A stretch of DNA of 49,908 nt. Source: Deltaproteobacteria bacterium (GTDB taxonomy: Bacteria > Desulfobacterota > Syntrophia > Syntrophales > Smithellaceae). The position numbers were made by a program, and so were the translations under genes. The notes below the pieces were generated by a model. It was given only the letters and a program-made list of their open reading frames with translations, had not been told where the DNA came from and searched no databases. Shown piece after piece: positions 1,643 through 21,493 of the stretch. The stretch's first letter is position 1; every line of letters starts with the position of its first letter. The stretch is from the NCBI GenBank assembly GCA_022711575.1, contig JAKLES010000002.1, positions 1-49,908 of the forward strand, read 5' to 3'.

Positions 1643-2905
1643 TTAAATCTCAGGACGTGCCCGACGATAGAAGATAGGAATGCAATTCCGAGGTTGCCCA
1701 GGAAGACACCCACAAGTAACGCTTGCAATAAGTTGAAGCAAACGTCCATACTTGTTAGTATCCACATGAGTAACATTCCCACCAGAAGTTGTAACCCTAA
1801 GAACTTGGTCAGTAATATAAACCTCACCGTTCCAATTCATAGAATAGAACTTCTTTTGATCAATTGCTTTAGAGCTAAACTCCTTCGGAGGAGCACCAAC
1901 AGCAATAGACTTGTAAGCATCTGCTCCCATAAGCCAAGCAACACCAAATGGAGCTTTAGTAAGAGATGCGTAGTCAGGATTAACAATCACCTGTCGTCCA
2001 CGTCCCTCAGCAGTTTCATCAAGAACAATCTGAGGATTGTAGATTGTCCCATCTGCTCCAAAACGAATTGCACCTTTTTCAAGTTTGCAAGTAATCTTGG
2101 ACCACAAACTACCTCGGAAACCATTAAACAACAGATCGAGATTTACAGACTTCAGATCATGTGCTGTTTGGTCATAGCGGAACATGCTATAAGCTTCGCT
2201 ATCGCACAGCAACACAAATTTGCCTTTAAGTCCCTCGTTATCAGAGGGCATGTTATTAACACCCTCGAAAGGAGGAGCATCAAGGTCTTCCTCAAGAGCA
2301 ATCTGCGCACGATTAATAACATTCAAAGTCAAGTTTGTCTTAACCTGTGCAGCAATATTAGCCCTCCAAGCAGCATTCTTAACATCAGTTTGACCCTCAT
2401 CAGAATATGGAGCATTAGTCAAGTCCGCAACTCCAGCAATTTGCACCAGAGGAGAACGTTGATAAGCTACTGTGCGGATAAACTGATTGTTGAAGATTTG
2501 AATCTGTCGAGTAATATCAGAACTCTTATACTTAACTTGACCCTGCCAAAAATCTTGGAACGAGGGAACAAAAGTGATAAGACGGGTTTCAAAATCTTGA
2601 GCTTTGATCCTAGCAGTCTGCAAAGCTTCATCAACTTCATAGACGTTCTTCGTAGGCTCAACATCAACATTGTTGGGATATACAAAAGTGTTAGCAATCG
2701 GAGATGGCTCCGGTCGCGCACTTTTCATAATATTACCCATGTTTGCTTTCCAGGGGATAGTCCCGAAAAGCTGATCCCAAATATTCCACCTGGGAGCAAC
2801 TTTTACCTCATTTTTAACAAGGTAAAAAGGCAACTTTGCAAACTTGTCTTTATCTTCTGTCTCGGCAAGAGCGAAAGTTGCAGGTTGTTCATACCAACTA
2901 GGCAT
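1643..2905 (-). CDS. Putative major capsid protein
   Basis: 420-aa ORF in the canonical order terminase, portal, scaffold, capsid. It has its own -24/-12 promoter candidate upstream (3023-3042), a hairpin downstream (1081-1116), and an AAAGG ribosome-binding-like site. The call rests on synteny and size only. Confidence 0.6.
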   Translation of the reverse strand: MPSWYEQPATFALAETEDKDKFAKLPFYLVKNEVKVAPRWNIWDQLFGTIPWKANMGNIMKSARPEPSPIANTFVYPNNVDVEPTKNVYEVDEALQTARIKAQDFETRLITFVPSFQDFWQGQVKYKSSDITRQIQIFNNQFIRTVAYQRSPLVQIAGVADLTNAPYSDEGQTDVKNAAWRANIAAQVKTNLTLNVINRAQIALEEDLDAPPFEGVNNMPSDNEGLKGKFVLLCDSEAYSMFRYDQTAHDLKSVNLDLLFNGFRGSLWSKITCKLEKGAIRFGADGTIYNPQIVLDETAEGRGRQVIVNPDYASLTKAPFGVAWLMGADAYKSIAVGAPPKEFSSKAIDQKKFYSMNWNGEVYITDQVLRVTTSGGNVTHVDTNKYGRLLQLIASVTCGCLPGQPRNCIPIFYRRARPEI

Positions 2906-3022: not shown

Positions 3023-3042
3023 AGAAGCAAGAACCATGCCAA
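3023..3042 (-). promoter_or_regulatory. Sigma-54 type (-24/-12) promoter candidate upstream of capsid gene
   Basis: The minus strand reads TTGGCATGGTTCTTGCTTCT. GG is at 3040-3039 and GC at 3028-3027, with exactly 10 nt between them, matching TGGCAC-N5-TTGCW. It is intergenic and about 120 nt upstream of the capsid ATG. Confidence 0.65.
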
Positions 3043-6114: not shown

Positions 6115-6348
6115 CTAGCCCTCCATAGTTTCTTTCTCAGAAACTTCTTCACTAAGTAGATAATCTTTAAGTTGTGTTTTCTGTTCTGGAGTAAGTCCCT
6201 CGCAGAAAGAAACTGGATCAAACTCAGGAGTTTCATCAGCTTCCATAGGGGCTTCTTCCATCATAGACTCCTCGTCATCTTCCATAGGTGGCGGAGGAGG
6301 TCCAGGACGCTTCATTCCAACTTTATTTGGCGGGACGAACTTAGGCAT
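6115..6348 (-). CDS. Small acidic, proline-rich protein
   Basis: 77-aa ORF (PGPPPPPMEDDEESMMEE..) that abuts the terminase stop and the portal start. Confidence 0.5.
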   Translation of the reverse strand: MPKFVPPNKVGMKRPGPPPPPMEDDEESMMEEAPMEADETPEFDPVSFCEGLTPEQKTQLKDYLLSEEVSEKETMEG

Positions 6349-7895
6349 TAGTTTTCCTTTCCTATTAGGTTGTTTAACTGACTTAGCTTTTTTAAAAACA
6401 CACTAGAAGGTTTGGTTTCTTTCTTGTCTTTTTCTATCTTGCTCCATTTAGTAAGAGAAAAATCCTTAAGTCTAGGATCTTCTTTATCTATTTTCTTGTA
6501 GCGTTTTACTATCGAACCTGTTCCCTCGTAACTACAAAATGCAAGTATTGCACTGTCAGCTTCATCTGGAGAAAGCCTACCTTTAGCGATTGCTTCATGT
6601 TTAGGCTCAAGATGCAAAATACCACTTTTAATAAAGGATCTTCTATTTAGTAGCTGGTCTATAAGGTCTTTGTTTGCTGCTTTGTTTTCACAAAATACAA
6701 TATTACAATCTTCAAGAAGTTTCCTGAAATGATACCAGTTTTCTATTCCAAGATTCTTATATGTGCGAGGGTCAGATGTTTTGGATTGGTTAAATACATA
6801 GTGGATTCCAACCCATTTGTAGTTGTAAACTAAGTTATCAAGAATTCCAATCCCCAACCCAGAGGCATCAGCAAAAATATCTTGTCCTCGGGCACCATAT
6901 TCTTTAAACCAACTATCTAAAATCTTCGCAGCTAAAGCTGTATTTTGCATTGAGAACTTATGCTGCTTTATAAGTTGGTTTCCATTTACAACAGTTAGAA
7001 CATTCTTATTTCCTCCGGCAGCTAAATCTAATCCAAATCTATTAAACTTTTCAATAAGTGGCGGAGGCTGACAAGCAAAGCAGTTGTTTAGAATATCCGC
7101 AGTAATTATGCTAACCATGTCCTCGGAGGCAAACTCCGCATCTAGCATAGACTTTACTAGCGGGTGATCAGCACCGTATTTTGTAATTAAAATCTCATGG
7201 TGTTTCTTGCTAAAATGCTCACAATCCTTACTCTTAACTACAAGCTTTGTCCAGTGAGGAGATACTTGGGATTCATAAAAATCTCCAGTAGCCTCACCTG
7301 GAGAGGAAACATAGATTTTCATTGTAAATCCTGTGCATCGCTCAAGAGCAGAGAAGATAACAGGATCTACACTTTTGGCTTCATTTACAATCAATATTAG
7401 TTCTGAGTTTCCATCCCGAGGGTGAAATCCTTCTGCTTTTCCTCCCTCGTCGGTGGCAAACATAAGACACTCACCACCAAAAACAAGATTTTTAATCTCT
7501 CGTTGTTTTATGTCAAATAACTCTGAGCCAAAATAGGCGTTGAAATTTTTACAAAGATTACTTATGTATTTTTCTGTTTGATGTTTGAGCTGAAATCCAG
7601 AGGAGGAGGTTATTGGAATTGTTACATTAGGAGAAAGTAAAAGTTTCCAACAAGCAAAGCCAGCAATTATAAACTTGTCTTTCCCACTACCATTTACCGC
7701 TCGGAGGGAAAACAAGCATGGGTCTAAGATAGTATAGTTTTTAGCTAATTTTACTAACGCTCTTACTTGCCAACCATAAAGAGTAGTCCTCCCGCTCTTT
7801 ATGTCATCATCAAACATAGACAAGAACTCTACAGGAGTAGGGAAAGCTTTTTTCAAAGCTTCTAGGACTTCCTCTTTGGAGAGTTCTTTGTCCAT
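6348..7895 (-). CDS. terL: Terminase large subunit
   Basis: 515-aa ORF. It has the P-loop-like motif RAVNGSGKDKF and the Walker-B-like ELILIVNEAKS, and the C-terminal half is of nuclease-domain size. It is positioned upstream of the portal. Confidence 0.7.
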   Translation of the reverse strand: MDKELSKEEVLEALKKAFPTPVEFLSMFDDDIKSGRTTLYGWQVRALVKLAKNYTILDPCLFSLRAVNGSGKDKFIIAGFACWKLLLSPNVTIPITSSSGFQLKHQTEKYISNLCKNFNAYFGSELFDIKQREIKNLVFGGECLMFATDEGGKAEGFHPRDGNSELILIVNEAKSVDPVIFSALERCTGFTMKIYVSSPGEATGDFYESQVSPHWTKLVVKSKDCEHFSKKHHEILITKYGADHPLVKSMLDAEFASEDMVSIITADILNNCFACQPPPLIEKFNRFGLDLAAGGNKNVLTVVNGNQLIKQHKFSMQNTALAAKILDSWFKEYGARGQDIFADASGLGIGILDNLVYNYKWVGIHYVFNQSKTSDPRTYKNLGIENWYHFRKLLEDCNIVFCENKAANKDLIDQLLNRRSFIKSGILHLEPKHEAIAKGRLSPDEADSAILAFCSYEGTGSIVKRYKKIDKEDPRLKDFSLTKWSKIEKDKKETKPSSVFLKKLSQLNNLIGKEN

Positions 7896-8147
7896 TTATT
7901 CGTTTCTAGCGATTGCAGCATTTGCCCACATAATAGCTTCTTCAAGTTTTGTAAGGGCTAAAGATTGTTCTCGGCTCTGTTTAGAACATTTAGCAATCAA
8001 AAGAGCCAGTTGTTTTGCAGACTCTCTTAAAACTGCATATCTTTCTATTTGTGAGTTATTAGGAGGATGGTAAGTAAAATCATTTATGATTCTTTCATAC
8101 ACATCCATCGGTATTTGATATTCAGTAGCAGTCATAATATTAGACAA
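7896..8147 (-). CDS. Hypothetical protein
   Basis: 83-aa ORF, end-to-end with its neighbours in the late operon. Confidence 0.5.
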   Translation of the reverse strand: MSNIMTATEYQIPMDVYERIINDFTYHPPNNSQIERYAVLRESAKQLALLIAKCSKQSREQSLALTKLEEAIMWANAAIARNE

Positions 8148-8898: not shown

Positions 8899-9348
8899 TT
8901 ATCCTATAATCTCAGCCTCTACTATAGAAGGACCATGTCCCTCGGAGGCTTTAGCTAATTGGTTTTCTGCAAGTTTCTTTGTCTGCATTATCTCTAATGC
9001 AAAATTCCTCAACAACCCAAGTGCTTCTTTTGCTGCATGGTTTTTGACCCTCGCATTATTTCTACCAGAAGCCTCCTCAATTACAAATTGTGCAGCTTTA
9101 AGTCTTACTCCATCATTTTGGGCATTGTGCATAATCTCCGTAATAACCCCAAGTGCAGCTTCCTCGTGGGTTTTAGAGCTTTCTTCGGAGGAAAACTTCT
9201 TAGCCACATTTGCGAGGGAGAGTTTTCTGCGAAACTTCTCTGTCACCACACAAACATTCGTGATATCCAGCTCAAGAGCCTCTGCAATCTCTTGATCTGT
9301 CATCCCGCTTCTCACAAAGCTCTCTAGTTGTTTCTCAAACGAACTCAT
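8899..9348 (-). CDS. Helix-turn-helix protein, possible small terminase subunit
   Basis: 149 aa and the first gene of the late operon. It contains GMTDQEIAEALELDITNVCVVTEKFRRKL, a sigma-70 region 4 / LuxR-like HTH pattern. The small-terminase call is positional only. Confidence 0.4.
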   Translation of the reverse strand: MSSFEKQLESFVRSGMTDQEIAEALELDITNVCVVTEKFRRKLSLANVAKKFSSEESSKTHEEAALGVITEIMHNAQNDGVRLKAAQFVIEEASGRNNARVKNHAAKEALGLLRNFALEIMQTKKLAENQLAKASEGHGPSIVEAEIIG

Positions 9349-9433
9349 TTTCCACGAGGTCTGCTTTTAGTTCTCTAACCTGCTCACTAGGTATTACCTC
9401 TGGGGTAAAGTAAAATCTCATATCTTACTTCTA

Positions 9434-9453
9434 CTTAAGCATTTTCCATGCCA
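9434..9453 (-). promoter_or_regulatory. Sigma-54 type (-24/-12) promoter candidate for the late (virion) operon
   Basis: The minus strand reads TGGCATGGAAAATGCTTAAG. GG is at 9452-9451 and GC at 9440-9439, 10 nt apart. It is about 90 nt upstream of the first late ORF. It matches the site at 17565-17582 at 17 consecutive positions. Confidence 0.7.
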
Positions 9454-10086
9454 TCGAGTTTCTCCTTACTTCCTACTAAGCTTTCTAATTTTACTTTAAA
9501 CTACATAAAATATCTAGTTTTTAAAATTTGAATTTTATGAGAGAGAGTCATGTGTTATTCGCGTATGCGATCGCGGCCCTCTCCCCACCAGCAAGTTCAG
9601 CTCCCAGGATAATTGCTATCTACACTTCGTGGTCTAGGATCTAGCTCATATCTAGTTGTTGCAAGTCTGGGAAAGCAACTAGCAGGAAGTCTGAACTTCA
9701 AAACTTCATGGATTAGGCTTCCTGGAAGATCTGGGATTTTGCTCTCTGGGGATTGAGAGTAGTTTAATCTTAAGTAAGATACTAATATTAGTAAGGATAT
9801 AATGATTCAATAGGTGTGATCGGCAATTTCTTCCTAGCGTTTAAACTCTCTAGGATTGATTATAAGAAGCCGTGTAGCCTTCTTGCTATAACCATATTAG
9901 AAATTACTTCCGCTTTTTGTAAACTACTAACTATCAGGAACAACGGCAAAAAAAATTCTTAAATAAATACAGGCTTCCAAGCTCCTATAATTGATCCTAG
10001 AGCTTTTCTTTAACATTAAAGCTTTAGTTAGAGTTTTGTTTTAGGGGTAAAAAAGTGACTTGAGCCCTAGGCGTGTGAGTAAAATC

Positions 10087-10140
10087 AAAAAAAAATTTTT
10101 TTTAGAGATTTTTTTGTTTTGTTTATTTTTTTGTTTTTAT
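10087..10140. other. A/T tract (A9T8 palindrome followed by T-runs), possible DNA-unwinding element
   Basis: The sequence is caaaaaaaaattttttttagagatttttttgttttgtttatttttttgtttttatttg. It lies in the divergent non-coding region next to the iteron-like repeats. Confidence 0.4.
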
Positions 10141-10187
10141 TTGTATAAGATAATGTCATATGTTTTTTTGGAGCCTAAAGCAAAAAA

Positions 10188-10334
10188 GTAAATAAAGAAA
10201 AAGCAAGAGAAAACTTCAGATCCCCCCCTCGTAAGGATTGTGGGGAAGTAAAGAAAAAGCAAGGAAAAACTTTAGAAAACCTAGAAAGCAAGCTGCAAAG
10301 CAAGCATCCCCCTCGTGGAGATGATGGGGAAGTA
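10188..10334. repeat. Two imperfect tandem iteron-like repeats, each with a CCCC..GGGG hairpin core; AAGCAAG occurs 4 times
   Basis: Unit 1 (10188-10250) is gtaaataaagaaaaagcaagagaaaacttcagatccccccctcgtaaggattgtggggaagta. Unit 2 (10248-10334) has the same ends with a ~24-nt insert. AAGCAAG recurs near 10201, 10258, 10287 and 10300. Confidence 0.6.
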
Positions 10335-10380
10335 GAGTTTGGTGGAGCTATAGCTTAAGGGATTGTAAAAAATTTAGGGT

Positions 10381-10401
10381 GCGAAGCATAAAGTATGCCA
10401 A
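10381..10401 (-). promoter_or_regulatory. Sigma-54 type (-24/-12) promoter candidate firing leftward into the non-coding region
   Basis: The minus strand reads TTGGCATACTTTATGCTTCGC. GG is at 10399-10398 and GC at 10387-10386, 10 nt apart. It lies back to back with the rightward sigma-70-like promoter at 10452. Confidence 0.6.
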
Positions 10402-10451
10402 GAGAGAGGCAAAAAGTAAAATAAAGTTTAGAATATTTCACTGTTAGGGGC

Positions 10452-10479
10452 TTGACAAGAGCGGAAATGGGGTTAAAAT
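10452..10479 (+). promoter_or_regulatory. Sigma-70-like early promoter candidate
   Basis: TTGACA (10452-10457), a 16-nt spacer, then TAAAAT (10474-10479). It lies upstream of the first plus-strand genes. Confidence 0.5.
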
Positions 10480-10493
10480 AAAAGGAAAAAACC

Positions 10494-10556
10494 ATGAAAA
10501 AAATAGTATCGACAATTGAGCTACCCTGCATCGAAGGGGACATATTTAGATTCTAA
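10494..10556 (+). CDS. 20-codon leader ORF (MKKIVSTIELPCIEGDIFRF)
   Basis: The ATG is about 15 nt after the -10 box, with AAAGGA 8 nt upstream. The stop codon TAA (10554-10556) directly abuts the 5' arm of the terminator hairpin. Confidence 0.3.
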   Translation: MKKIVSTIELPCIEGDIFRF

Positions 10557-10587
10557 TCCGGAGGATTTTAATCCACCGGATTTTTTT
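10557..10587 (+). terminator. Intrinsic terminator / attenuator upstream of the first early gene
   Basis: TCCGGAGGATT (10557-10567) pairs with AATCCACCGGA (10570-10580) with one mismatch. A T7 run follows (10581-10587). Confidence 0.6.
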
Positions 10588-10612
10588 GTTCACAAATAAC
10601 CTATAAAAACCT

Positions 10613-10861
10613 ATGAGAAATCTTGAAAACGAAGTAAACAGCCGAAGGGATCAAGTGGAGAGAATCCTAACTCGATTTTACACCGAATACCCAGATACTC
10701 CACACAATGGTGCTCCATCCCAAAGTCTAAGGGTAAAGGTAGCGATTAACACCCTTAAACACTTGTTTCCATGGCAGAAAAAATCCTGGATGCAAGATAT
10801 TAATTTTCTCGAAGATTGGTCAACACTTCACCGAGCGTTGACTATTATTGACAAGGACTAA
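10613..10861 (+). CDS. Early hypothetical protein
   Basis: 82-aa ORF and the first gene after the leader. Its start context ataaaaacctATG is identical to that of the next gene. Confidence 0.5.
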   Translation: MRNLENEVNSRRDQVERILTRFYTEYPDTPHNGAPSQSLRVKVAINTLKHLFPWQKKSWMQDINFLEDWSTLHRALTIIDKD

Positions 10862-10941
10862 ATTCGTGCAATCCCTTTGTGGATTGCATAGATCCACCAA
10901 AAAACTTGATGGATCTAACACAATCCACAAAATAAAAACCT

Positions 10942-11349
10942 ATGAAAGACAAAATCACAACCAAGGTTAACACCGTAGAGATTACACTCAGTCTCCTAAC
11001 AAAAAAAGGAGACACTGAGACTTACTATGGTATTAGTGATGAAACGCTCAAAGCAATTAGCTTTGATGACTTGAAGCAAGTCATTGGCAACGAAACAATT
11101 GTCAAAGATTGGCTCCAACAAACTCTTAACTTGCGCCTGCAGAAAGCGCAAAATGAGTATAAGCTCAGTCCTGGTGACGAAGAGTTCATCAAGTTCGCAG
11201 AGAATGGCTGGAGGAAAAATCGCAAAGATGAACTCAAGAGTACAATTGACGAGTTCAACAAAAAGATCATGGCCGCGCTCCGGGAAGGTAAAAAAGATGT
11301 AGCACAAGAATTAATGGATGAAATGCAAAAGTTTGTATTAAATCAATAA
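10942..11349 (+). CDS. Early hypothetical protein
   Basis: 135-aa ORF with the ataaaaacctATG start context. The antisense ORFs overlapping it look like shadows. Confidence 0.55.
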   Translation: MKDKITTKVNTVEITLSLLTKKGDTETYYGISDETLKAISFDDLKQVIGNETIVKDWLQQTLNLRLQKAQNEYKLSPGDEEFIKFAENGWRKNRKDELKSTIDEFNKKIMAALREGKKDVAQELMDEMQKFVLNQ

Positions 11350-11377
11350 TTCAAACCTTGAAAGTCAAATTCTAGCT

Positions 11378-11590
11378 ATGAAAAAATACTTAGCCTTATT
11401 GCTTGTGAAAGCACATTCACAAGAGGATTTATCGCAACTTAAAGAAATTGCCAAAGATATTTTAGTGATGGAGGCAATTAAGTTGAAACATGAACAATTC
11501 CTATGTGATAAGGAATTGCGAGATCTTAATAGCATCTCAGGCTATAATTATGCAGTTCGTGAAGAAGTAGCTAAATGGGCAAAATTATGA
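11378..11590 (+). CDS. Early hypothetical protein
   Basis: 70-aa ORF overlapping the next gene by 16 nt. Confidence 0.45.
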   Translation: MKKYLALLLVKAHSQEDLSQLKEIAKDILVMEAIKLKHEQFLCDKELRDLNSISGYNYAVREEVAKWAKL

Positions 11591-11946
11591 ATCTTCAAGA
11601 TTTATTAATCTCAGAAGTATCTAGCTTAATTGAAAGCTGGCTTCGATTCCACCCGCAAAGGATAGTGGCTTCTGAAGTAGCCTCTGAGCTTAAAAAACTC
11701 CATCCAGAAGATTGGAGCTTTATCCCAGTTGAAGGTGGCAATCTAGTCAAAGTATGCTACGTCTCTACCGCAGAACGTTGGGAGAAAGCATATCAACGCG
11801 AACAAGCCGCAATCAAAGCGGCCAATGAACAACGAAGTAAAGCACTTGCAGAGGAGGAGGAAATCCTTAGCAAGATAGGAGGAAAACTTGACAAGAATCA
11901 AGTTGAAAAGTTTATGAGACTTAAAAGGATGATTGACAACCTATAA
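11575..11946 (+). CDS. Early hypothetical protein
   Basis: 123-aa ORF followed by a strong terminator. Confidence 0.5.
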   Translation: MGKIMNLQDLLISEVSSLIESWLRFHPQRIVASEVASELKKLHPEDWSFIPVEGGNLVKVCYVSTAERWEKAYQREQAAIKAANEQRSKALAEEEEILSKIGGKLDKNQVEKFMRLKRMIDNL

Positions 11947-11970
11947 GTAGCGTCAATTAAATTACCACAA

Positions 11971-12008
11971 AACACCCCAAGGTTAAAATCTTGGGGTGTT
12001 TTTGTTTT
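11971..12008 (+). terminator. Intrinsic terminator ending the first early transcription unit
   Basis: AACACCCCAAG (11971-11981) pairs with CTTGGGGTGTT (11990-12000) across an 8-nt loop. TTTGTTTT follows. Confidence 0.7.
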
Positions 12009-12023
12009 CCAAGGAAAAACCAT

Positions 12024-14201
12024 ATGACAATAGAAGAAATAAAAATCCACAATTATATTGTGGATAAATTACGAACCGACGATAAATGGCTTAAGCGCGC
12101 TTTGGTGCGATTGTATGAGTGTCAAGAAGCCGATGAACAAAGCCAACAAACAACAAAACATCTTAACGGCAGGGGATTTGATTATGCTGATAGTGATTTT
12201 TGCTCATCCGTAGCAGAATACATCCAAGCCAAAGGAGATTTTTCTCCCTCGGGTAAACAACAAGTAGCTTTGCGAAAGTGCTTGCCGAAATATTGGAAAC
12301 AAGTCTGGGATTTCATTCCCTCCGCGAAGCAACAAGAGATACTTGCAAGCTTGTCCCCTACGAGCGTCAGCGAGGCTGGAATGTCAAATGGTCAAAGGGA
12401 AAAAACTTTAACGTTACAAAACACCCCGCCAAGCGATTCAAATGATGCTCCCCTTGTGTCTATACCCCCCGCTTTGCAAGATGCACTGGCATTAGTGCCC
12501 GAAAGCACCTGCCAGCAATCTAGTGACATTGTAGTTGTAGATAGTTTACCGGAAGTAAAACAAGTAAATGATGTAATTCTTGCACAAGATACTTACTCTC
12601 TAGAAAAGATAATCGAAGCTTGCGAAAAAGCCGAAACAAGCTCGCAGCTTAAGTTTCTCCAGCCTTTCCAAAAAGAGGAATGTATTGCATTAGTTAATTC
12701 TATTGCTAATCATAATGGTGAACAGCTTGTTGCAGGAACAGGAACAGGAAAAACTTATATCTATGCTTTAGCATTTAAAGCACTAGAATTGCTAGGCTTC
12801 TTTGATGGAACTAAGACCGGGTGGATGGTAGTAACTTTTAAAACCGCAGTAAAACAAACTCAAAGAGTAATTAAAAAAGCCTGTCTTAAAACTTCAGGTT
12901 ATGTCATGGGCTATGATGCCCTTAGATCAACTATTGGAGAAGTATTTCTTAGCTGGCATACGGAAATAAAAAATGGCCAGCCTAGTTTTTATACTGTTTG
13001 GGACAAGAATTTTGCTCCTCGGGTTTGTTTATTTGATGAAAATCAAGCACTCAAGAATAATGGAACCTTGCGAGAAGATGTCTTACTAGGCTATATTAAC
13101 CTTGCTTCTGCTAATCCTGAGGAAAAGTTTATTCCAGTATTTACCAGTGCCACACCTTGGACAAGAGTAAGTGAAATGAAGCTAAGTGTAATTGCGCTTA
13201 GACCTTACATTGAATATCCTGATCCATATTGGTATGGAAAGAAAATCAAGTCTAGGATTACAGAAAATACTTGGAATAGATTCGCAAAGTCCATATGTCG
13301 CAATCCAGAAGATTACAATGCTGCGGCATTAAAACGTGCAATAGACACATTAAATGAATACAATCCGGGATTAATTCGTGTAGTAAAAGGTGTGAGATTT
13401 CCTCATAGGGGATTCATTAAACACGTGCTAATGCAATTCAAAACTCAGGAGGAAGCAAAGTTTTATCAACAAGCCTATGAGGATTATCTTAGGGAATTAG
13501 CAAAAATAAACAAAGCTTCCCCCGGCTGGTTTGCAGCAAAACTTGTTGCAATGCTAAAGTTTAGGATGCGTGCAGAGGAAATTAAAGCCCCATATCTTGC
13601 AGAACAGGCAATCCAACATATCAAGGAAGGCAAACAAGTAATTGTTGGATCTAACTTTATTAAAACTGTTGAAATTGTTTCCTCTCTAGTAGAAGCCGCA
13701 GGCTACAAAGTTTCACTTATTGTTGGTGGTCAAAGTGCAGAAAAGAGACAATCAAATGTGGATAGATTCCAGGAAGGCAAAGCTGAATGCGCTTGTGTAG
13801 CTTTGCGCGCCGGCGGTGTGGCTCTAAGCCTACACCACGACCGTGATACATCACGCCCTCGAATTGTTCTTGTGCCGCCAACCTGGAGTGCAATAGAAAT
13901 GGTACAATTCCTTGGCCGTGCTGTTCGTATAGACTCCCTTACAGATACCATACAATATATTTGTTGGTTCGCAGGAACAATTGAAGAACATGTTTCCTCG
14001 AAAGTAGCAACAAAGATGAGTGCAATTAAAGGTTATGTTGGCAAAAAAGAAACATGGAGCAAAGCTTATGAAAGCTCAAACGAAGTTGATGAGACTGAGA
14101 TAAGTGAAAGACTTGTTACAGATGCAGAAGAAACTGATGAAGATGGAAACATCAAAGAAATAAATGAAGAAGAAGTAGAGATGATATTGGGAGAAGATTA
14201 A
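12024..14201 (+). CDS. SNF2 / DEAD-like superfamily-2 helicase
   Basis: Motif I is LVAGTGTGKTYIY and motif II is CLFDENQALKN. The C-terminal helicase domain shows VIVGSNF..LIVGGQS..RFQEGKAECACVALRAGGVALSLH. The track start at 11991 lies inside the terminator hairpin, so the start is moved to the ATG at 12024 (context aaaaaccatATG). Confidence 0.7.
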   Translation: MTIEEIKIHNYIVDKLRTDDKWLKRALVRLYECQEADEQSQQTTKHLNGRGFDYADSDFCSSVAEYIQAKGDFSPSGKQQVALRKCLPKYWKQVWDFIPSAKQQEILASLSPTSVSEAGMSNGQREKTLTLQNTPPSDSNDAPLVSIPPALQDALALVPESTCQQSSDIVVVDSLPEVKQVNDVILAQDTYSLEKIIEACEKAETSSQLKFLQPFQKEECIALVNSIANHNGEQLVAGTGTGKTYIYALAFKALELLGFFDGTKTGWMVVTFKTAVKQTQRVIKKACLKTSGYVMGYDALRSTIGEVFLSWHTEIKNGQPSFYTVWDKNFAPRVCLFDENQALKNNGTLREDVLLGYINLASANPEEKFIPVFTSATPWTRVSEMKLSVIALRPYIEYPDPYWYGKKIKSRITENTWNRFAKSICRNPEDYNAAALKRAIDTLNEYNPGLIRVVKGVRFPHRGFIKHVLMQFKTQEEAKFYQQAYEDYLRELAKINKASPGWFAAKLVAMLKFRMRAEEIKAPYLAEQAIQHIKEGKQVIVGSNFIKTVEIVSSLVEAAGYKVSLIVGGQSAEKRQSNVDRFQEGKAECACVALRAGGVALSLHHDRDTSRPRIVLVPPTWSAIEMVQFLGRAVRIDSLTDTIQYICWFAGTIEEHVSSKVATKMSAIKGYVGKKETWSKAYESSNEVDETEISERLVTDAEETDEDGNIKEINEEEVEMILGED

Positions 14202-14206
14202 AAATT

Positions 14207-14374
14207 ATGAAACCTAAAAATATGGTAATTACATATAAAATTATAAACCTTCTAATAAATGAAGGCTGTAGTATAAATGATGTTTATGAGATTTTCTTTC
14301 TGCTAAAGAAGTCTTATGATAAAATAACTTCTGACATGTTAAACTTAAAAGAAACAACAAATATTAATAATTAA
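14207..14374 (+). CDS. Small hypothetical protein (55 aa, below the track cutoff)
   Basis: Read by eye: MKPKNMVITYKIINLLINEGCSINDVYEIFFLLKKSYDKITSDMLNLKETTNINN. It fills the gap between the helicase and the next ORF. Confidence 0.3.
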   Translation: MKPKNMVITYKIINLLINEGCSINDVYEIFFLLKKSYDKITSDMLNLKETTNINN

Positions 14375-14379
14375 AGACT

Positions 14380-14811
14380 ATGAAAACTTATTATAAACTT
14401 GTTTATAAATATCTGTATGAATATAGAAGTTGTAGTGTTTACATGCAACCATATTCTATTTCATATCCTCCTAATAGTATTATAAAAGCACCAGAAAGCG
14501 GACCAATATTTATATTTGATTCTAAAGAACATTTAGATGATTATGCAAATTATTATTGTAAAAGGACGAATTTATACTATTATAAAGTTCACGCACTAGG
14601 TGTGAGAAAACCATTAAGCATTTGTGATTATGTTCTCATTACTTATAAACTTACTTATAAAGAGTATTCTCCAGACCTTTTTTGGAGACAAATGAAAGAG
14701 GTAAATACTGATCTTATAATTAGTAATAATAATATGTATGTTATGCATGCTCCAACAGGAACATTAGTAGCAAGAGTTATTAAAACCCTCGGAGAAGCAA
14801 TCAAATTATGA
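14380..14811 (+). CDS. Hypothetical protein, apparent distant paralogue of 15916-16293
   Basis: 143 aa. It shares ordered landmarks with the 125-aa ORF: MKxYK.V, Y[RK]SC, G.[IL]F[IV]F, FW and AP.GT. Confidence 0.5.
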   Translation: MKTYYKLVYKYLYEYRSCSVYMQPYSISYPPNSIIKAPESGPIFIFDSKEHLDDYANYYCKRTNLYYYKVHALGVRKPLSICDYVLITYKLTYKEYSPDLFWRQMKEVNTDLIISNNNMYVMHAPTGTLVARVIKTLGEAIKL

Positions 14812-15545
14812 ACCCAAAACTAGCAAGACGCTTACGGGACGAAGGTGCTCTTGGAATAGCAAGAAAGTTCCTACAAGAGTCTAAGTTAGACTCCTTTATT
14901 GGATCTTCTCCAGCAGTAGCTAGGCTTAAAGAACGTGTAGAGAAACTGAGAGGAAGAAAAGAAAGTATCTTAATCCTCGGAGAAAGTGGAACAGGCAAAG
15001 AACTTATTGCACGTGCTTTGCACGAAGATAGTTTTGGTCCTTTTGTAGGTGTTAATCTTTCAGCTTTACCAGAAACCCTAGCTGAGAGTTTGTTATTTGG
15101 TTCAGTAAAGGGATCATTTACAGGAAGTAATGAGAACAAAATTGGTATGTTCCAGCAAGCAGGAAAAGGAACATTGTTTCTTGATGAACTTGCAGAGATA
15201 GAGGTGGGACTGCAAGTAAAATTACTTCGAGTATTACAAGAAAGGGAATACTACCCAGTAGGTTCAACAATATTAGAGAAGTTAGAATGTAGAATAATCT
15301 CCGCAACAAACAACACAACATTGAAAGGATTAAGACTAGACTTAATAGAAAGACTAGGAACATTTAGAATACATATTCCTCCGCTAAGAGAAAGGCTAGA
15401 AGATATAAAAGAAATAGCAGAAAGTTTCTTAGAAGAAGAACTCCCAGAGGAACTTATTGACAAATTAAAAAATTATAATTGGCCCGGAAACGTCCGTGAA
15501 TTACAGAACAAGTTATTAAATTGGAAAACATTTGGAGAGTTATGA
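14808..15545 (+). CDS. Sigma-54-interacting AAA+ activator (bacterial enhancer-binding protein central domain only)
   Basis: Full-length motif match to the NtrC/PspF central domain. Motifs seen: ILILGESGTGKELIARALH (Walker A), LLFGSVKGSFTGS (GAFTGA loop variant), GTLFLDELAEI (Walker B), LLRVLQEREYYPVGS, CRIISATN, IHIPPLRERLEDI and NWPGNVRELQN. It has no receiver or sensor domain and no C-terminal HTH. Confidence 0.85.
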   Translation: MNPKLARRLRDEGALGIARKFLQESKLDSFIGSSPAVARLKERVEKLRGRKESILILGESGTGKELIARALHEDSFGPFVGVNLSALPETLAESLLFGSVKGSFTGSNENKIGMFQQAGKGTLFLDELAEIEVGLQVKLLRVLQEREYYPVGSTILEKLECRIISATNNTTLKGLRLDLIERLGTFRIHIPPLRERLEDIKEIAESFLEEELPEELIDKLKNYNWPGNVRELQNKLLNWKTFGEL

Positions 15546-15874
15546 ATAAAAAACAGTATAAAATTTATTGTGATAAAGTAGAAAAAGAAACTAAAGGTCT
15601 AATTGTTTCAACTGGAGCTTGTCCCGGATGTAATGAATGCAACTTAGATAAAAATGCTACTGATGAAGAAATAGATATTGCTAATGAACCAAGTTTCTCT
15701 TGGTATTGTTGTAATATTTGTAACACAAGACTTGGAGGAGATAGGTATTATGCTCATGGTATAAATAAAAATAATAAGATTATTCATTTTAATATTTGTT
15801 TAGACTGTTTGATGTATTTAAATTATGGTCAACTTGATGATATGACAATGTTAGATATGGAAAAGGAAGATTAG
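15521..15874 (+). CDS. Cys-rich (zinc-finger-like) small protein
   Basis: 117 aa with CPGCNEC, CCNICNTRLGG and FNICLDC clusters. Confidence 0.5.
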   Translation: MENIWRVMNKKQYKIYCDKVEKETKGLIVSTGACPGCNECNLDKNATDEEIDIANEPSFSWYCCNICNTRLGGDRYYAHGINKNNKIIHFNICLDCLMYLNYGQLDDMTMLDMEKED

Positions 15875-15915
15875 TAATTAAATTACACTTATAAAATAAA
15901 TATACCTTAGAAACT

Positions 15916-16293
15916 ATGAAAGCTTATAAGATTGTAAAAGTTGATTCTGATGGAACATATAAAAGTTGTTTAGGTTTTACTGACCTAAAGTGTTGTGTAG
16001 AATATAAAGTTGGTGAGCCAGTATATCCAAAGATTGGAAAACTTTTTGTGTTTAAGAAGAAAGCAGATGCAATTAGGTTTAGTAAAAGTTTCTGGAATCT
16101 TAATAAAAGCTTTAAACTATTTTCTTGCCTAGCAACGGAAGCAAAGAAACAAACTGAGATATCGTATGTTGTAAGTGATAATTGTGTAAAAAGTTTTTGG
16201 GATTTTACACTGCCAGATTATGATATAGATGAAGCCCCGAAAGGGACTTATTGTTGCTCAAGTGTAACATTAGTGAAAGAAAGAAAACTATGA
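15916..16293 (+). CDS. Hypothetical protein, apparent distant paralogue of 14380-14811
   Basis: 125 aa beginning MKAYKIVKVDSDGTYKSC. It shows the same ordered landmarks as the 143-aa ORF. Confidence 0.5.
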   Translation: MKAYKIVKVDSDGTYKSCLGFTDLKCCVEYKVGEPVYPKIGKLFVFKKKADAIRFSKSFWNLNKSFKLFSCLATEAKKQTEISYVVSDNCVKSFWDFTLPDYDIDEAPKGTYCCSSVTLVKERKL

Positions 16294-17555
16294 AATACTT
16301 CGTAATCACAACAAATGTAGAGTTGCACTTAAAAGAAATCATAACCCTAGGACTAACAACCAAGAAAGATACAGATAAGATTGGACACAAAGGAACAGGT
16401 TTTAAGTTCACACTAGCTTATTTACATAGGCTAGGAAGTTGTTTGCATACTAGGGATAACTTACTTGATGAAAGTTATACTTCTTTTAGTAAAGAAGAAA
16501 CAATTAAAGGACAAATACATAGTTTCTTATACTTAATATCCTCAAAAGGAGTAGAAACTCCATTAAATATAACCACACATCTTGGAGAAGATACTTGGAA
16601 TAAGCCTTGGTTTATTCTCAGGGAACTTATCCAAAACGCACTAGATGAAGGAGGAAAGTATTTTATTTCCGATAACTTCTATGAAGGAGAGGAAAGAACA
16701 ATAGTTCAAATACCACTAACCTCTGAACTTGAGAAAGCCTACGAGGAAATAGATAACTGGTTTACTACAAAACTTGTTGGAGTTTACAAAGATGGTCCTC
16801 CTGGAATTTTCTATAAAGGTTTTAGAGTAACAGAAAAGGAGGGATTTTCTATCCAGTGGGTGATGGATATAAATAGAGATTATCTTTCTGAAGATAGAGT
16901 CCTGAAGACTGGATTATATAATTTGTCTTTCTACAAGTTTGGAAACTCCAAAGAACTAGCAGAGATATTATTAGCTAATTCTTCTAATGAATATTCTGAT
17001 GATCTTAAAGCTGCCATAGATCAAGTGCAATATCATTCCACATTTCAAGAAAACTTAGCATCTTTATTAGATGAAAATTGTGTTTATGTTAATCAAGTTT
17101 CAGAAACTTTATTACATGACATAAAAGCAAAAGGAAAAAAGCCTACAATTGCAAATAGTTCTTTTGTTAATATGTTAGAAAGATTTAATCTATATAATAA
17201 ATTTACTATTGCCTCTTTAGATTTATCAAAATCTTGGGAAGAAGTAGAACTTAGTAAAGAACAAAAACATGTGTTTGCAAAAGCTTTAAGAATAACGTCA
17301 AAAATCCGTCCAACAGATTGTAAGGTTTTAGTAGCTAAGAAACTTAATGAGAATGAAAACTGGTCTGGACTTGCAGATTTAAAATCAAATCAAATAGTCA
17401 TCCGCAATAGTATTGTTGGTAATCTTGAGTTGTTAGTAAAAGTTTTAGTTCACGAATATATTCATATTAGATCACGAGCAAGTGATTGTTCAGAAGACTA
17501 TGAGGAAGAAGCGGTTAGGATTATTAGCAAGTTACTATTAGGTTGTGACCTATAG
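16290..17555 (+). CDS. Large accessory protein with a GHKL-like N-box motif and a C-terminal HExxH motif
   Basis: RELIQNALDEGG resembles the ExxxNxxD N-box of GHKL/MORC/Hsp90-type ATPases. IGHKGTGFKF is a Gly-rich loop, but it precedes the N-box, which is atypical order. VLVHEYIHIRS is a zincin-like HExxH. The start is taken at the ATG at 16290, which forms an ATGA overlap with the previous stop. Confidence 0.45.
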   Translation: MKYFVITTNVELHLKEIITLGLTTKKDTDKIGHKGTGFKFTLAYLHRLGSCLHTRDNLLDESYTSFSKEETIKGQIHSFLYLISSKGVETPLNITTHLGEDTWNKPWFILRELIQNALDEGGKYFISDNFYEGEERTIVQIPLTSELEKAYEEIDNWFTTKLVGVYKDGPPGIFYKGFRVTEKEGFSIQWVMDINRDYLSEDRVLKTGLYNLSFYKFGNSKELAEILLANSSNEYSDDLKAAIDQVQYHSTFQENLASLLDENCVYVNQVSETLLHDIKAKGKKPTIANSSFVNMLERFNLYNKFTIASLDLSKSWEEVELSKEQKHVFAKALRITSKIRPTDCKVLVAKKLNENENWSGLADLKSNQIVIRNSIVGNLELLVKVLVHEYIHIRSRASDCSEDYEEEAVRIISKLLLGCDL

Positions 17556-17564
17556 CAAAAGTCC

Positions 17565-17582
17565 CTGGCATGGAAAATGCTT
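17565..17582 (+). promoter_or_regulatory. Sigma-54 type (-24/-12) promoter candidate for the 17649-18101 gene
   Basis: The sequence is CTGGCATGGAAAATGCTT. GG is at 17567-17568 and GC at 17579-17580, 10 nt apart. It is intergenic and about 65 nt upstream of the ATG. Confidence 0.7.
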
Positions 17583-17648
17583 AGTAGTCTTAGTCGTTAG
17601 ACAAAATCCCCTCGGGGACAACCAACAACAATTAAACAAAAAGCACTT

Positions 17649-18101
17649 ATGAGTAATGATATTAAAGTTTTGAGTGAAAAAGACGGAATCCAAGTTCAAG
17701 AGATTGAATTTGCAAAGGGAGAATATGCTGGCTACAAGTTTGCACTTCCTGTTGTCATGACCCTCGCCGCGGCTGTTGCTGCTTATGGCGAGGAAGCAGT
17801 TCTTAATAGCTTTAATGCCAACGCATCTACTGCGATCAGGGCCAAAGTTAAGAGCAAGTTAGTGGAATCCAAAGATAATCTTCCTGCCAAAGACAACTTA
17901 CTTTACAGTATTGAAGATGCTTTCTCTTGGAAACCAGGCGAACGTGAAATGTCTGTTGCAGCTATCCTCAAGTTGATGAAAAATACTATGAAGGAAGCAG
18001 ATGAAGCTAAGAAGGCTGGCAACAAAGAGATATATCTTGATCTTAAGAACAGGGCTCAAGAACTCTTTATGAAGGCTTCTGAGAAAATGGGACTTGAGTA
18101 G
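17649..18101 (+). CDS. Hypothetical protein in a monocistronic sigma-54-promoter / terminator unit
   Basis: 150-aa ORF, Ala/Lys-rich and helical-looking. It is bracketed by the promoter candidate (17565-17582) and a 12-bp-stem terminator (18121-18162). Confidence 0.6.
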   Translation: MSNDIKVLSEKDGIQVQEIEFAKGEYAGYKFALPVVMTLAAAVAAYGEEAVLNSFNANASTAIRAKVKSKLVESKDNLPAKDNLLYSIEDAFSWKPGEREMSVAAILKLMKNTMKEADEAKKAGNKEIYLDLKNRAQELFMKASEKMGLE

Positions 18102-18120
18102 TAGTTGGTCATTGTGGGTT

Positions 18121-18162
18121 CTAGGAGTAGGGTTTTGTGATTTCCCTACTCCTAGTTTTTTT
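18121..18162 (+). terminator. Strong intrinsic terminator
   Basis: CTAGGAGTAGGG (18121-18132) pairs with CCCTACTCCTAG (18144-18155) across an 11-nt loop. A T7 run follows. Confidence 0.8.
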
Positions 18163-18203
18163 CTTCTAGTATTTTTATTTATCCTCCTAACAAAAACTTC
18201 TCT

Positions 18204-18725
18204 ATGGGACTTCTTGATGCAGTCAGACCTGTGGATAAACAAGCTTTAGAGAAAGACCTCTATAGCTTAAATAGAATAAGACAGTTTAAACCATTGCTTG
18301 AGAAGATCCTCGCAGATGGAGTTGATTGTTTTATTTCTTCTAAGATTGCAGGTTACAAACCAAGGTCATTGCATGTATATCTAAATGCAGCACTTAAAGA
18401 TTTGTCCACATTTTCCTCCGAGGAACAAAGTCAAAAGTGGCAACTATTTAGAAAGCTTGTAGAATTTAGACCTGCGGAGGATGGAGTATTTGTAATATTT
18501 AAACGTCCTATCTTAATGGACACAGAACTTAGTCCAACTCCTAAAGAACCTGACTATTCTTGGAGAGAAGACTTTACTAAGTTTGTAGAAGATGGGAAGC
18601 AAGGAGAGATTAGGGAATTTACTGGGGTTTTAAATGATGGAGATAAGAAGTTTGTTACAGGAGTTGTAAATGGAATCCAGGGAGAAGTAGAGTTTGGACC
18701 TTTTTCTTTTAAAGTAATTCTATGA
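18204..18725 (+). CDS. Hypothetical protein
   Basis: 173-aa ORF whose stop overlaps the next start (ATGA). Confidence 0.55.
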   Translation: MGLLDAVRPVDKQALEKDLYSLNRIRQFKPLLEKILADGVDCFISSKIAGYKPRSLHVYLNAALKDLSTFSSEEQSQKWQLFRKLVEFRPAEDGVFVIFKRPILMDTELSPTPKEPDYSWREDFTKFVEDGKQGEIREFTGVLNDGDKKFVTGVVNGIQGEVEFGPFSFKVIL

Positions 18726-18916
18726 CAATAGAACAACTTCTAGGACTTCCCTCCGAAGAACTTGCAAAGTTAACAGATGAGGAAATACTTAAAGTATTTG
18801 AACCATGTTTAAAGTTTACAATGCCAAAAGAAGTCAAACATCATGAAACCAAACAGTCAAAAGAAACCCTCCGAGATCAACTACTAGCACTTAAAGCAAT
18901 ACTTGATAATGAATAA
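18722..18916 (+). CDS. Hypothetical protein
   Basis: 64-aa ORF, translationally coupled on both sides. Confidence 0.45.
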   Translation: MTIEQLLGLPSEELAKLTDEEILKVFEPCLKFTMPKEVKHHETKQSKETLRDQLLALKAILDNE

Positions 18917-19775
18917 AAAACTAATCCTCCTAGATGCTTCTAGCATAGCAACATCAAGTTGCATGAGGAAGTGGAAGTTTACAGTTCTTGATGGACTTGT
19001 TCCAGATAGAATTTCTTGGAGTATGGAAGCTGGAACAGCTTTTCACAAAGGACTTAAAGCTTTCTATTCTAAAAAAGACCTACAAGTTTGTCAACAAGAA
19101 GCAGAAGATTACCTTGACAAGTTTCTATGTCCAGATAACACACATATAACTTCTACTTATTTATCATTAGCGTTGCTGGCTTATATAAAGAAGTATCAAA
19201 ACGACATACTCAAACCTTTACAACTAGATGGAGAGTTGTTACTTGAGAAGACTTTTAAGTTTCCATTGTATAGTGATGACAACATAGAGATTGTCCTCGT
19301 GGGAACAATAGATTTTATTGGAGAACTCGGAGGACAACTTCTTATTGTTGATCACAAAACAACATCTTCAACATATAAGAATTCTTTCCTCGCAGGATTT
19401 AGACTTTCTCCTCAGCTTCTAACTTATGACTTTGTAGTTAGGAAGATCCTAAAACTAGGGGATGAAGTTTCTTGTATGATAAATGCAATCTTCTTTTGGA
19501 AAGCGGGAGCACAGTTTGAAAGAAGTGAGATTATTAGCTTTACTAAAGACCTCCGAGATACCTATGAGGAAGAACTCCGTGAGCTTTGTAAGAAGATTGC
19601 CTGTTGTTATGCAGCTAACTACTGGCCAGTAGGTTGTTTTACAGTTTGCAAAGAAGAATATGGTCCTTGCAGATTTCAACCTATCTGTTGTGTTGAACCT
19701 GAGTATCAGCAAAATGTAATAGACATATCTTATACGAAAAGAATCTATAATCCATTGCAATTCCAGAAAGACTAA
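18903..19775 (+). CDS. PD-(D/E)XK nuclease of the Cas4 / RecB-like type with a 4-Cys cluster
   Basis: It shows GTIDFIGE..LLIVDHKTT (D..D-x-K) and SPQLLTYDF (QxxxY). There is one N-terminal Cys (SSCMRKW) and a C-terminal CKEEYGPCRFQPIC, consistent with Fe-S-containing Cas4-like exonucleases. Confidence 0.7.
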   Translation: MIMNKKLILLDASSIATSSCMRKWKFTVLDGLVPDRISWSMEAGTAFHKGLKAFYSKKDLQVCQQEAEDYLDKFLCPDNTHITSTYLSLALLAYIKKYQNDILKPLQLDGELLLEKTFKFPLYSDDNIEIVLVGTIDFIGELGGQLLIVDHKTTSSTYKNSFLAGFRLSPQLLTYDFVVRKILKLGDEVSCMINAIFFWKAGAQFERSEIISFTKDLRDTYEEELRELCKKIACCYAANYWPVGCFTVCKEEYGPCRFQPICCVEPEYQQNVIDISYTKRIYNPLQFQKD

Positions 19776-19779
19776 AATT

Positions 19780-20115
19780 ATGAGTAACCAAGAAAGAATC
19801 AAATCACAGTCTGATATCATATTTATGCACCGAACACTAGACAGCTTCATAACAGAAGCTAAAGGGAAATTCCAAGTTGGTGCTTTTGAACATGGTGGGT
19901 CTATATTTGACCGGGAAACAATTCAAGAAGCAAGAAAAGAGGTAATGGACTTGATGTTCTATCTAGGAACTTTGAAAGAAAAGAAAGAACATCTTATGTT
20001 TGTTGTTGGGGAGCTTGAGAATCAAGTAAGAGGATTTGAAGATTCTGTGGAGTATTTTCCCCATGAGATAAAAGCCTCTGTAAAAGAACTAAAAACTAAA
20101 ATTGAAAACCTCTAA
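19780..20115 (+). CDS. Hypothetical protein
   Basis: 111-aa ORF in the replication / recombination module. Confidence 0.5.
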   Translation: MSNQERIKSQSDIIFMHRTLDSFITEAKGKFQVGAFEHGGSIFDRETIQEARKEVMDLMFYLGTLKEKKEHLMFVVGELENQVRGFEDSVEYFPHEIKASVKELKTKIENL

Positions 20116-20120
20116 AATCT

Positions 20121-20765
20121 GTGCCATCTAAACCTATGATCATGGTCCTCGGCCCCTCGGGGTCGGGAAAGTCAACATCTTACGAACATCTTCCTCGTGA
20201 GACTACAGCAGTTATTGACTTGGAACTTAAAGGATTTCCTTTTAAAGATCCATCATTCTACTCTGTTATTGAATGTCGCAAAGCGGAGGAAGTTACAAGT
20301 GCAGTAGAAAAAGCACTTAAAGATGACAATGTAAAACTTGTTGTTATTGATAGTCTTACAAAGTTTACTGAGTATGTCCTCGCGGAATGTCGAGCATCTT
20401 TTAAAGGTTATGACATTTGGTCCCAATATGCAATTAGGATTAGAAACTTTCTAAATAAAATTCGCAATGACAAGAAACCAGTAATTGTAATTTCTATTGA
20501 TGAGATAGTAAAAATCGAACAACCAGATGGAGGGATAGTTTCTCGCCTCCGGGCTGCGGTTCAAGGTAAAGAACTTGAGGGAAAACTTGAGAAGGAATTT
20601 CTTATTGTTCTCTGCACAGAAGTTGTGGTTGATAGTAAGACTGGAACTCCCTCATATTTATTTAGGACGTTTTCTACTGTTTCTACTGCGAAAGCCCCTC
20701 GCTGGTTAGACCTCCCAGCAACAATGCCGAATGATCTTAAACCTATTATAGATAAGTTGCTTTAA
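20121..20765 (+). CDS. RecA-fold P-loop ATPase (Sak4 / AAA_24-like)
   Basis: Walker A is MVLGPSGSGKST and Walker B is KLVVIDSLT. At about 210 aa, and sitting next to the nuclease, it is typical of phage recombination ATPases. The track start is GTG; an ATG alternative lies at 20136. Confidence 0.65.
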   Translation: MPSKPMIMVLGPSGSGKSTSYEHLPRETTAVIDLELKGFPFKDPSFYSVIECRKAEEVTSAVEKALKDDNVKLVVIDSLTKFTEYVLAECRASFKGYDIWSQYAIRIRNFLNKIRNDKKPVIVISIDEIVKIEQPDGGIVSRLRAAVQGKELEGKLEKEFLIVLCTEVVVDSKTGTPSYLFRTFSTVSTAKAPRWLDLPATMPNDLKPIIDKLL

Positions 20766-20825
20766 AATTTTCTAGTCTTTACAAGACTAGGGAAAACAAA
20801 ACCAAAAACTAAAAAACTAAAAACT

Positions 20826-21365: not shown

Positions 21366-21371
21366 AAGTAA

Positions 21372-21447
21372 TTTCCTCCTAGAGTAGAAAAGGATTGTTG
21401 TTAACGGTCATGGCAGGCTAACATAACAATCAAACTCTAGGAGGAAA
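21372..21447 (+). other. Long imperfect hairpin (14-bp outer inverted repeat) at the end of the recombination module
   Basis: TTTCCTCCTAGAGT (21372-21385) pairs with ACTCTAGGAGGAAA (21434-21447). The interior is partly self-complementary (gattgttgtta..taacataacaatc). No clean T-run follows. Confidence 0.5.
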
Positions 21448-21493
21448 CTTTATAATGTTCTTATTTTAATCGCTTGGTAAGGACTTATATCGT

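Follow-up and report, generated by a model that had tools for sequence, protein, structure and literature searches.

Canonical sigma-54 promoters together with their NtrC-family bEBPs, for example glnAp2/NtrC, nifH/NifA and pspA/PspF, are the closest described counterparts of the system presented here. Promoters of this class follow the consensus YTGGCACGr-N3-TTGCW. The canonical systems share with our locus the GG-N10-GC spacing, the extended consensus and an AAA+ activator that carries Walker A and Walker B motifs, sensor II and a loop of the GAFTGA type; in both, ATP is expected to drive the closed complex into the open one. The differences lie in the activator, which is encoded by a phage and has neither sensory nor DNA-binding domains, in the absence of a conserved UAS, and in the targets, which are phage replication, packaging and capsid genes.

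Activators consisting of the AAA+ core only, about 250 residues long like the phage protein, are represented by DctD250 and PspF(1-275), but these are laboratory truncations. The engineered DctD250, derived from S. meliloti, is constitutive, promiscuous and enhancer-independent in vivo, and it activated diverse sigma-54 promoters in E. coli and Salmonella (PMC3844500). FlgR of H. pylori has been cited as a natural enhancer-independent activator without a DNA-binding domain (PMC3844500). FlgR keeps its receiver domain, however, and is controlled by a kinase. By contrast, the phage proteins, with a median of 250 aa, occur naturally without a receiver and constitute a separate clade.

Known devices for timing of phage gene expression comprise sigma-70-family factors, antiterminators, RNA polymerase modifiers and phage polymerases. 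Classical switches are T4 gp55/gp33 with the sliding clamp, the SPO1 sigma factors gp28 and gp33-34, lambda Q, and T7 RNA polymerase. The likeness to the present case is that an early product redirects transcription to middle or late genes equipped with a distinct promoter type. While the classical switches supply a sigma-70-family factor, an antiterminator or a polymerase, the phage described here would supply only an ATPase activator and borrow sigma-54 from its host. Promoter regions of both sigma-70-like and sigma-54-like type have been attributed to Pseudomonas phage YuA (Ceyssens et al. 2008, cited in bioRxiv 10.1101/2023.10.13.562163). In YuA, one promoter was associated with such a sigma-54-like region; in our family, by comparison, the sigma-54 motif is dominant, family-wide and accompanied by a dedicated activator. 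A tblastn search with this activator retrieved no Pseudomonas phage record. In the searchable literature, which did not cover subscription-only papers, no report of a phage-encoded bEBP, or of phage genes timed in such a way, was found. Taken by themselves, the sigma-54 promoters and the bEBP AAA+ domain are ordinary and belong to known classes; it is their context that is unusual.

The window, by which we mean the whole stretch of 49,908 nt that was analysed, is a complete or near-complete phage-like genome organised in two divergent arms (Table 1), and its cumulative GC-skew minimum lies close to 10 kb, within 9349-10612. At least 16 public metagenomic contigs carry the same phage, with 99.9-100% identity; strain variants this close are uninformative on selective conservation. 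Megablast of 20 kb of the window against 50,697 deposited phages gave no match, and neither an Rfam family (at gathering thresholds) nor a tRNA was found in the window. An exact terminal direct repeat of 11-200 nt is absent at the window ends, and circularity of the genome is therefore assumed. At these ends, amid the minus-strand virion arm, a plus-strand ORF of 102 codons (19-327) and non-coding stretches (also at 49775-49908) are located. The 420-aa product of 1643-2905 was modelled from an alignment of 47 sequences (pTM 0.72), and it is identified as the major capsid protein because the top 50 PDB matches of the model are all HK97-fold phage capsid proteins, with probability 1.0. A 604-aa protein, encoded beside the terminase in 72 of the 80 related loci introduced below, is by inference probably the portal.

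Table 1. Features of the window discussed in the text, in window coordinates
Feature	Position	Strand	Remarks
Site 1, sigma-54-type promoter TGGCATGGTTCTTGCTT	3025..3041	-	24.2 bits, best in window; predicted start ~3015; 110-nt leader
Site 2, sigma-54-type promoter TGGCATGGAAAATGCTT	9437..9453	-	22.8 bits; before packaging/virion block
Site 3, sigma-54-type promoter TGGCATACTTTATGCTT	10384..10400	-	20.6 bits; predicted start ~10374
Site 4, sigma-54-type promoter, 17-mer as in site 2	17566..17582	+	21.1 bits; predicted start ~17592
Direct repeat GCTTA(A)GTAG(G)AAGTAAG, two copies	9424-9443 and 9465-9484	-	flanks site 2; window-specific
28-codon leader ORF	9335..9421	-	ATG ~6 nt from predicted transcript start; not called as gene in public contig
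Candidate sigma-70-type early promoter TTGACA-16-TAAAAT	10452..10479	+	11/12 consensus match only; faces plus arm with activator gene
Intrinsic-terminator-like hairpin	11969..12002	+	near-perfect 15-bp stem and T-run; after four small early genes, before helicase-to-activator block
Minus-strand arm	9348 to 406 and 49774 to 30401	-	large terminase, probable portal, major capsid
Plus-strand arm	10613 to 30459	+	helicase, PD-(D/E)XK nuclease, AAA_24 ATPase, split family-A DNA polymerase, B12/radical-SAM enzyme, primase-like protein
Large terminase	6348..7895	-	homologs annotated as terminase large subunit, several with PF17289; family marker
Major capsid protein, HK97 fold	1643..2905	-	420 aa; gene served by site 1
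First gene 3' of site 2	8899..9348	-	149 aa; no family match
Minimal bEBP (activator)	14808..15545	+	245 aa; AAA+ sigma-54-interaction domain and lid only

A preliminary description of this DNA had pointed to a minus-strand -24/-12 element with GG-N10-GC spacing at 9434-9453 and to a second copy of its 17-mer. Both observations hold. The minus strand reads TGGCATGGAAAATGCTTAAG from 9453 to 9434, with a gap of exactly 10 nt between GG and GC, and the 17-mer contained in it (9437-9453) is identical to 17566-17582 on the plus strand, no third copy being present even when 3 mismatches are allowed. The pattern TGGCAT-N6-TGCTT, said to be fitted by four intergenic sites, has exactly four matches in the whole window, referred to here as sites 1 to 4; only the starts originally given for them (3023, 9434, 10381 and 17565) are off by 1-3 nt. 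Dinucleotide-preserving shuffles contain 0.08 matches on average, and none of 100 shuffles reached four. The GG-N10-GC spacing is present in all four sites. All four lie in non-coding gaps, which according to the curated gene map make up 5.4% of the window, so that the chance of finding every site outside genes is about 8e-6. A matrix scan against shuffled sequence, suggested at that time as a check, places the same four sites at the top. With a matrix derived from relatives only they score 20.6-24.2 bits, the next match reaches 12.5 bits, which is within the shuffle range, and shuffles yield 0.085 matches of at least 18 bits. The four sites are also the top matches in the window with a generic sigma-54 matrix of approximate weights.

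Transcription starts were predicted on the assumption of canonical geometry, in which the GC has its C at -12, and fall approximately 12 nt past the GC. For three of the four sites, this leaves a predicted leader of 57-110 nt to a start codon on the same strand, site 3 being the exception. Site 2 had been placed about 90 nt from the first gene of the virion block, and indeed 88 nt separate the 3' end of its motif from the start codon (ATG, 9348); the start predicted at ~9427 corresponds to a 79-nt leader. Site 1 is located inside the virion block, directly 5' of the major capsid gene. Site 4 occupies a 93-nt gap ahead of the block 17649-30459, which encodes a PD-(D/E)XK nuclease, AAA_24, split PolA, radical SAM and primase proteins. 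The claim that each site points toward downstream genes is valid for sites 1, 2 and 4 and fails for the minus-strand site 3, which has no called ORF for ~930 nt downstream and faces a 1.26-kb ORF-free, origin-like region. Tandem sites on the same strand 5' of the terminase block, comparable to site 3, occur in relatives as well. Leader RNAs downstream of the four sites have no unusual structure (z -1.0 to 0).

Two broader claims have to be given up. The virion genes had been described as one operon of ~29 kb, but this extent depends on the assumed circularity, and the block is not a single operon since site 1 represents a conserved internal promoter directly before the capsid gene. Nor is the element specific to late genes: site 4 precedes the replication genes, and the same activator would serve both replication and virion genes.

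In IMG/VR, neither the activator nor the terminase gave a match when used as a single-protein query, and an alignment query was needed. Searching with an alignment of terminase homologs, we collected the best 80 loci listed (terminase 31-40% identical, flanks of up to 10 kb per side, 1.28 Mb). No cultured phage was found in this terminase family, the best candidates being Akkermansia phages at less than 30% identity. The family pattern TGGCA[CT]-N6-TGC[AT] occurs 246 times in the 80 loci as opposed to 14±4.8 in shuffles, approximately a 17-fold enrichment. Only the N6 spacing is enriched; other spacers between N2 and N10 give 6-21 matches. After dereplication, 212 sites remain in 66 lineages with GC content of 31-55%, at least one site being present in 58 of them and at least two in 52. 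The sites are predominantly intergenic (77%, against 21% background), and their strand follows the direction of transcription: the region that begins 1 kb upstream of the terminase and extends onward has 81 same-strand and 4 opposite sites, and the far divergent arm, 6 kb or more upstream of the terminase, has 34 opposite and 2 same-strand sites.

Positions left free by the pattern were inspected in 175 distinct intergenic sites. T is found at -11 in 97% of them and at -27 in 66%; position -20 is G or A in 91%, position -15 is T in 49% and position -10 is A in 57%. These preferences follow the sigma-54 consensus. Conservation ends at -27 on the upstream side and at -9 on the downstream side, and no conserved element recognisable as an enhancer (UAS) precedes -27. 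A same-strand site lies 96-265 nt 5' of the capsid-gene homolog in 53 of the 66 relatives (background 0.043 per 400 nt), which is the position taken by site 1 in the window.

The product of 14808-15545 had been suggested as the activator of these promoters. The suggestion is supported by a strong bEBP AAA+ domain, by the exact geometry of the sites, by their conservation in the family and by genetic linkage. The protein matches PF00158 (Sigma54_activat) with E=1.6e-46 over model positions 2-167 of 168, plus AAA_lid_14. It contains Walker A (GESGTGKE), Walker B (LFLDE) and sensor II (WPGNVRELQN) motifs and the loop GSFTGS, and it aligns to structures of NifA, NtrC, FleQ and PspF with E=1e-36 to 1e-46. 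The loop falls column-for-column on GAFTGA of NifA and NtrC, with F, T and the glycines kept; function of the serine variant is inferred. Neither a regulatory domain (receiver, GAF, PAS or V4R) nor an HTH_8 match was detected in the protein, in which only ~28 residues precede the AAA+ domain and the chain ends 12 residues after sensor II. A C-terminal HTH is typical of bEBPs without being strictly defining, and PspF is likewise devoid of a regulatory domain. As nothing but the AAA+ part is present, the activator is expected to be constitutive and to act from solution without an enhancer, which remains an inference. Its PHROG match, phrog_7998, is labelled 'unknown function'. Among deposited phages, the tblastn matches examined for the activator were only bacterial contigs filed as phages and high-GC 'Bacteriophage sp.' fragments with full-length bEBPs (474-510 aa), and they were rejected as relatives. 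No sigma-54 (Pfam or PHROG) was found among the phage ORFs of at least 300 aa. Host RpoN would therefore be required, and presence of rpoN in the host is an assumption. A GTDB scan for the host gave four distant matches, in bins of differing taxonomy.

Genes for such activators and the motif are linked. In seven of the terminase loci a bEBP homolog occupies the relative position that the activator has in the window, the complete ones being AAA+-only proteins of 246-263 aa, and of the 80 contigs of the terminase family at least 24 also encode a bEBP. IMG/VR was scanned twice with alignments of phage bEBPs, which yielded ~300 viral stretches encoding bEBP relatives. Among the best 80 of these, loci with short bEBPs (up to 340 aa) have 1.19 sites per 10 kb and at least one site in 22 of 27 cases, while loci with long, cellular-type bEBPs (400 aa or more), which represent an internal negative control, have 0.09 sites per 10 kb and at least one site in 4 of 32 (Fisher p=8e-8). 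The matches listed include 61 distinct complete phage-type bEBP ORFs, 235-336 aa long (median 250), with the loop GSFTGA in 37, GAFTGA in 15 and GSYTGA in 7. Of the 61 genes, 53 have a site on the same strand after their stop codon, in 51 cases within 0-60 nt. The window differs in this respect: the site after its activator gene lies 2.0 kb further on, past three extra ORFs (15521-17555). Many relatives have same-strand sites 4-7 kb upstream of the bEBP gene, where positive feedback is thus possible; in the window, the relatives-only matrix finds no -24/-12 site upstream of the activator gene in its block.

We regard it as very probable that the four elements are sigma-54 (RpoN)-dependent promoters, read by host E-sigma54 and switched on by the 245-aa activator of the phage itself, a function that is inferred, no starts having been mapped. 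In the presumed order of events, host E-sigma70 would transcribe the plus-strand early arm after infection, with 10452-10479 as candidate promoter, and the activator gene would be expressed as a part of this arm. E-sigma54 bound at the -24/-12 elements would form a closed complex, inactive alone. The activator, presumably acting on E-sigma54 as an ATPase hexamer, would then remodel sigma-54 by means of ATP hydrolysis and its GSFTGS loop, and the promoters would be opened. If the sites fire as inferred, site 4 would turn on the replication block and site 2 the packaging/virion block, site 1 would provide extra expression of the capsid gene, and site 3 would send a transcript into the origin-like region, so that the phage activator may drive transcription into the replication origin.

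Several other readings of the same elements have to be weighed. Chance or compositional artefacts of an AT-rich genome can be practically dismissed. The generic matrix alone would leave some room for them, the highest score in 200 shuffles being 20.2 bits and up to 4 matches reaching at least 15 bits, but four exact matches against 0.08, all of them non-coding (~8e-6), do not agree with such an origin, and it is refuted by the ~17-fold enrichment in 1.28 Mb of relatives with its specificity of spacing, strand and position. It is also conceivable, if improbable, that the motif only resembles a -24/-12 element and is in fact the site of another phage or host factor, such as an unrecognised sigma factor or a DNA-binding regulator, while the AAA+ protein is, for example, a remodeller in replication or packaging. 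The motif agrees with the sigma-54 consensus also where the pattern left positions free, and in the canonical spacing only, which is hard to reconcile with this, as is the membership of the AAA+ protein specifically in the sigma-54-interaction family (E=1.6e-46), with the loop kept across the clade as GSFTGA, GAFTGA or GSYTGA. The motif moreover co-occurs with short bEBP genes and abuts them. Another factor cannot be excluded entirely, as most phage proteins in the window have no recognisable family, biochemical data are lacking and the bEBP-like PHROG family is one of 'unknown function'.

The sites might, on the other hand, bind E-sigma54 without being mainly promoters: they could separate transcription units as roadblocks or insulators, or act as sinks which divert the sigma-54 holoenzyme from host genes. 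Closed complexes of E-sigma54 are stable, site 3 has no gene downstream, and many sites coincide exactly with the boundary that follows the bEBP gene; in enterobacteria, intragenic sigma-54 sites that are not promoters are known (PMC3844500). We nevertheless consider such a role very improbable: the strand of the sites matches that of the downstream genes almost without exception, sites precede the capsid gene start by 96-265 nt, and the activator encoded by the phage has no known activity other than opening such complexes.

Promoters opened by the phage activator remain the preferred reading, against which several points count. Its loop is GSFTGS, not the canonical GAFTGA; a terminator separates the candidate early promoter from the activator gene, leaving expression of the activator unresolved; site 3 has no gene to drive; if a single activator serves all sites, any distinction between middle and late genes is left unexplained; and a near relative, discussed below, is free of the motif in 16.7 kb. 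The candidate early promoter is by position the better of two 11/12 matches (right strand, non-coding). The terminator at 11969-12002 implies an immediate-early unit, and read-through or antitermination, or else an unseen promoter, would be needed for the helicase-to-activator block.

The closest relative examined, L171 (a 56-kb ENA contig, GC 48%), has a terminase 48% and a capsid protein 61% identical to those of the window. Neither a -24/-12 motif nor a bEBP was found within the 16.7 kb of it that were examined, and the system is accordingly not universal in the family. A terminator and TTGACA-N15-TAGAAT are located before its capsid gene. A swap of promoter type, or a different regulatory scheme, is suggested by this at most: the spacer is short, only a part of the contig was covered, and the picture is not clean in the other 13 relatives without the motif at this place. 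The features of note in L171 lie in L171:1-934 and L171:10044-10293, among them four palindromic boxes like TTGGGTGAATATACCCAA and long G-rich repeats at the contig end.

Taken over the whole family, it is likely that a widespread group of uncultivated phages of ~50 kb (at least 58 IMG/VR lineages, GC 31-55%) runs its middle/late programme on host sigma-54, with a self-encoded, sensor-less and enhancer-independent AAA+ activator as the single timing switch, whose gene is usually situated right before its first target promoter. If true, a phage supplying only an ATPase activator and borrowing sigma-54 would represent a further timing strategy, and a very clean off/on switch as well, since sigma-54 promoters are fully silent without an activator. 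Promiscuity is to be expected of such an activator, which would probably also fire the whole sigma-54 regulon of the host during infection. The idea can be tested in E. coli without knowing the host, as the precedent of DctD250 shows. It would offer a naturally occurring family of minimal activators that need no enhancer, of use in studies of bEBP-sigma-54 engagement and as compact parts for synthetic biology, a sequence signature (short bEBP and -24/-12 sites) for annotation of transcription units, and, for hundreds of uncultivated phage contigs, the constraint that their hosts are rpoN-positive.

The region 9349-10612 contains 1.26 kb without a credible ORF, iteron-like direct repeats (10190-10337) and an A/T-rich tract (~10085-10160), and is probably the replication origin. 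Site 3 points into it, toward terminator-like hairpins at 10323-10305 and 10231-10204. Compared with shuffles, folding of the 921-nt transcript region without ORFs is somewhat better (z=-3.2), which is not informative; that site 3 may give rise to a short RNA or activate the origin by transcription is speculation. The leader ORF and the direct repeat at site 2 mentioned in the preliminary description both exist, the two repeat copies being 75% identical without gaps, and neither is a conserved feature of the phage family. A role of the repeat as enhancer is unsupported, as conservation in the family is confined to -27 to -9.

A few genes of the window deserve mention in their own right. The family-A DNA polymerase is split into 24538-25983, with the 3'-5' exonuclease and the start of the polymerase domain, and 28253-29248, with the C-terminal polymerase domain; the ~2.3 kb between the halves hold small ORFs and a gene for a B12-binding radical SAM protein (26545-27999). 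Just upstream of the terminase, the minus-strand ORF 7896-8147 (79-83 aa; phrog_1454) has a precomputed Pfam match to the Acb2/Tad1 hairpin (PF24729), and its product is a candidate anti-CBASS or anti-Thoeris nucleotide sponge. Within the virion arm, the product of 47865-48413 (minus strand) matches phrog_1128 (enoyl-CoA hydratase / ClpP-like fold, E=4e-30) and may be a prohead protease.
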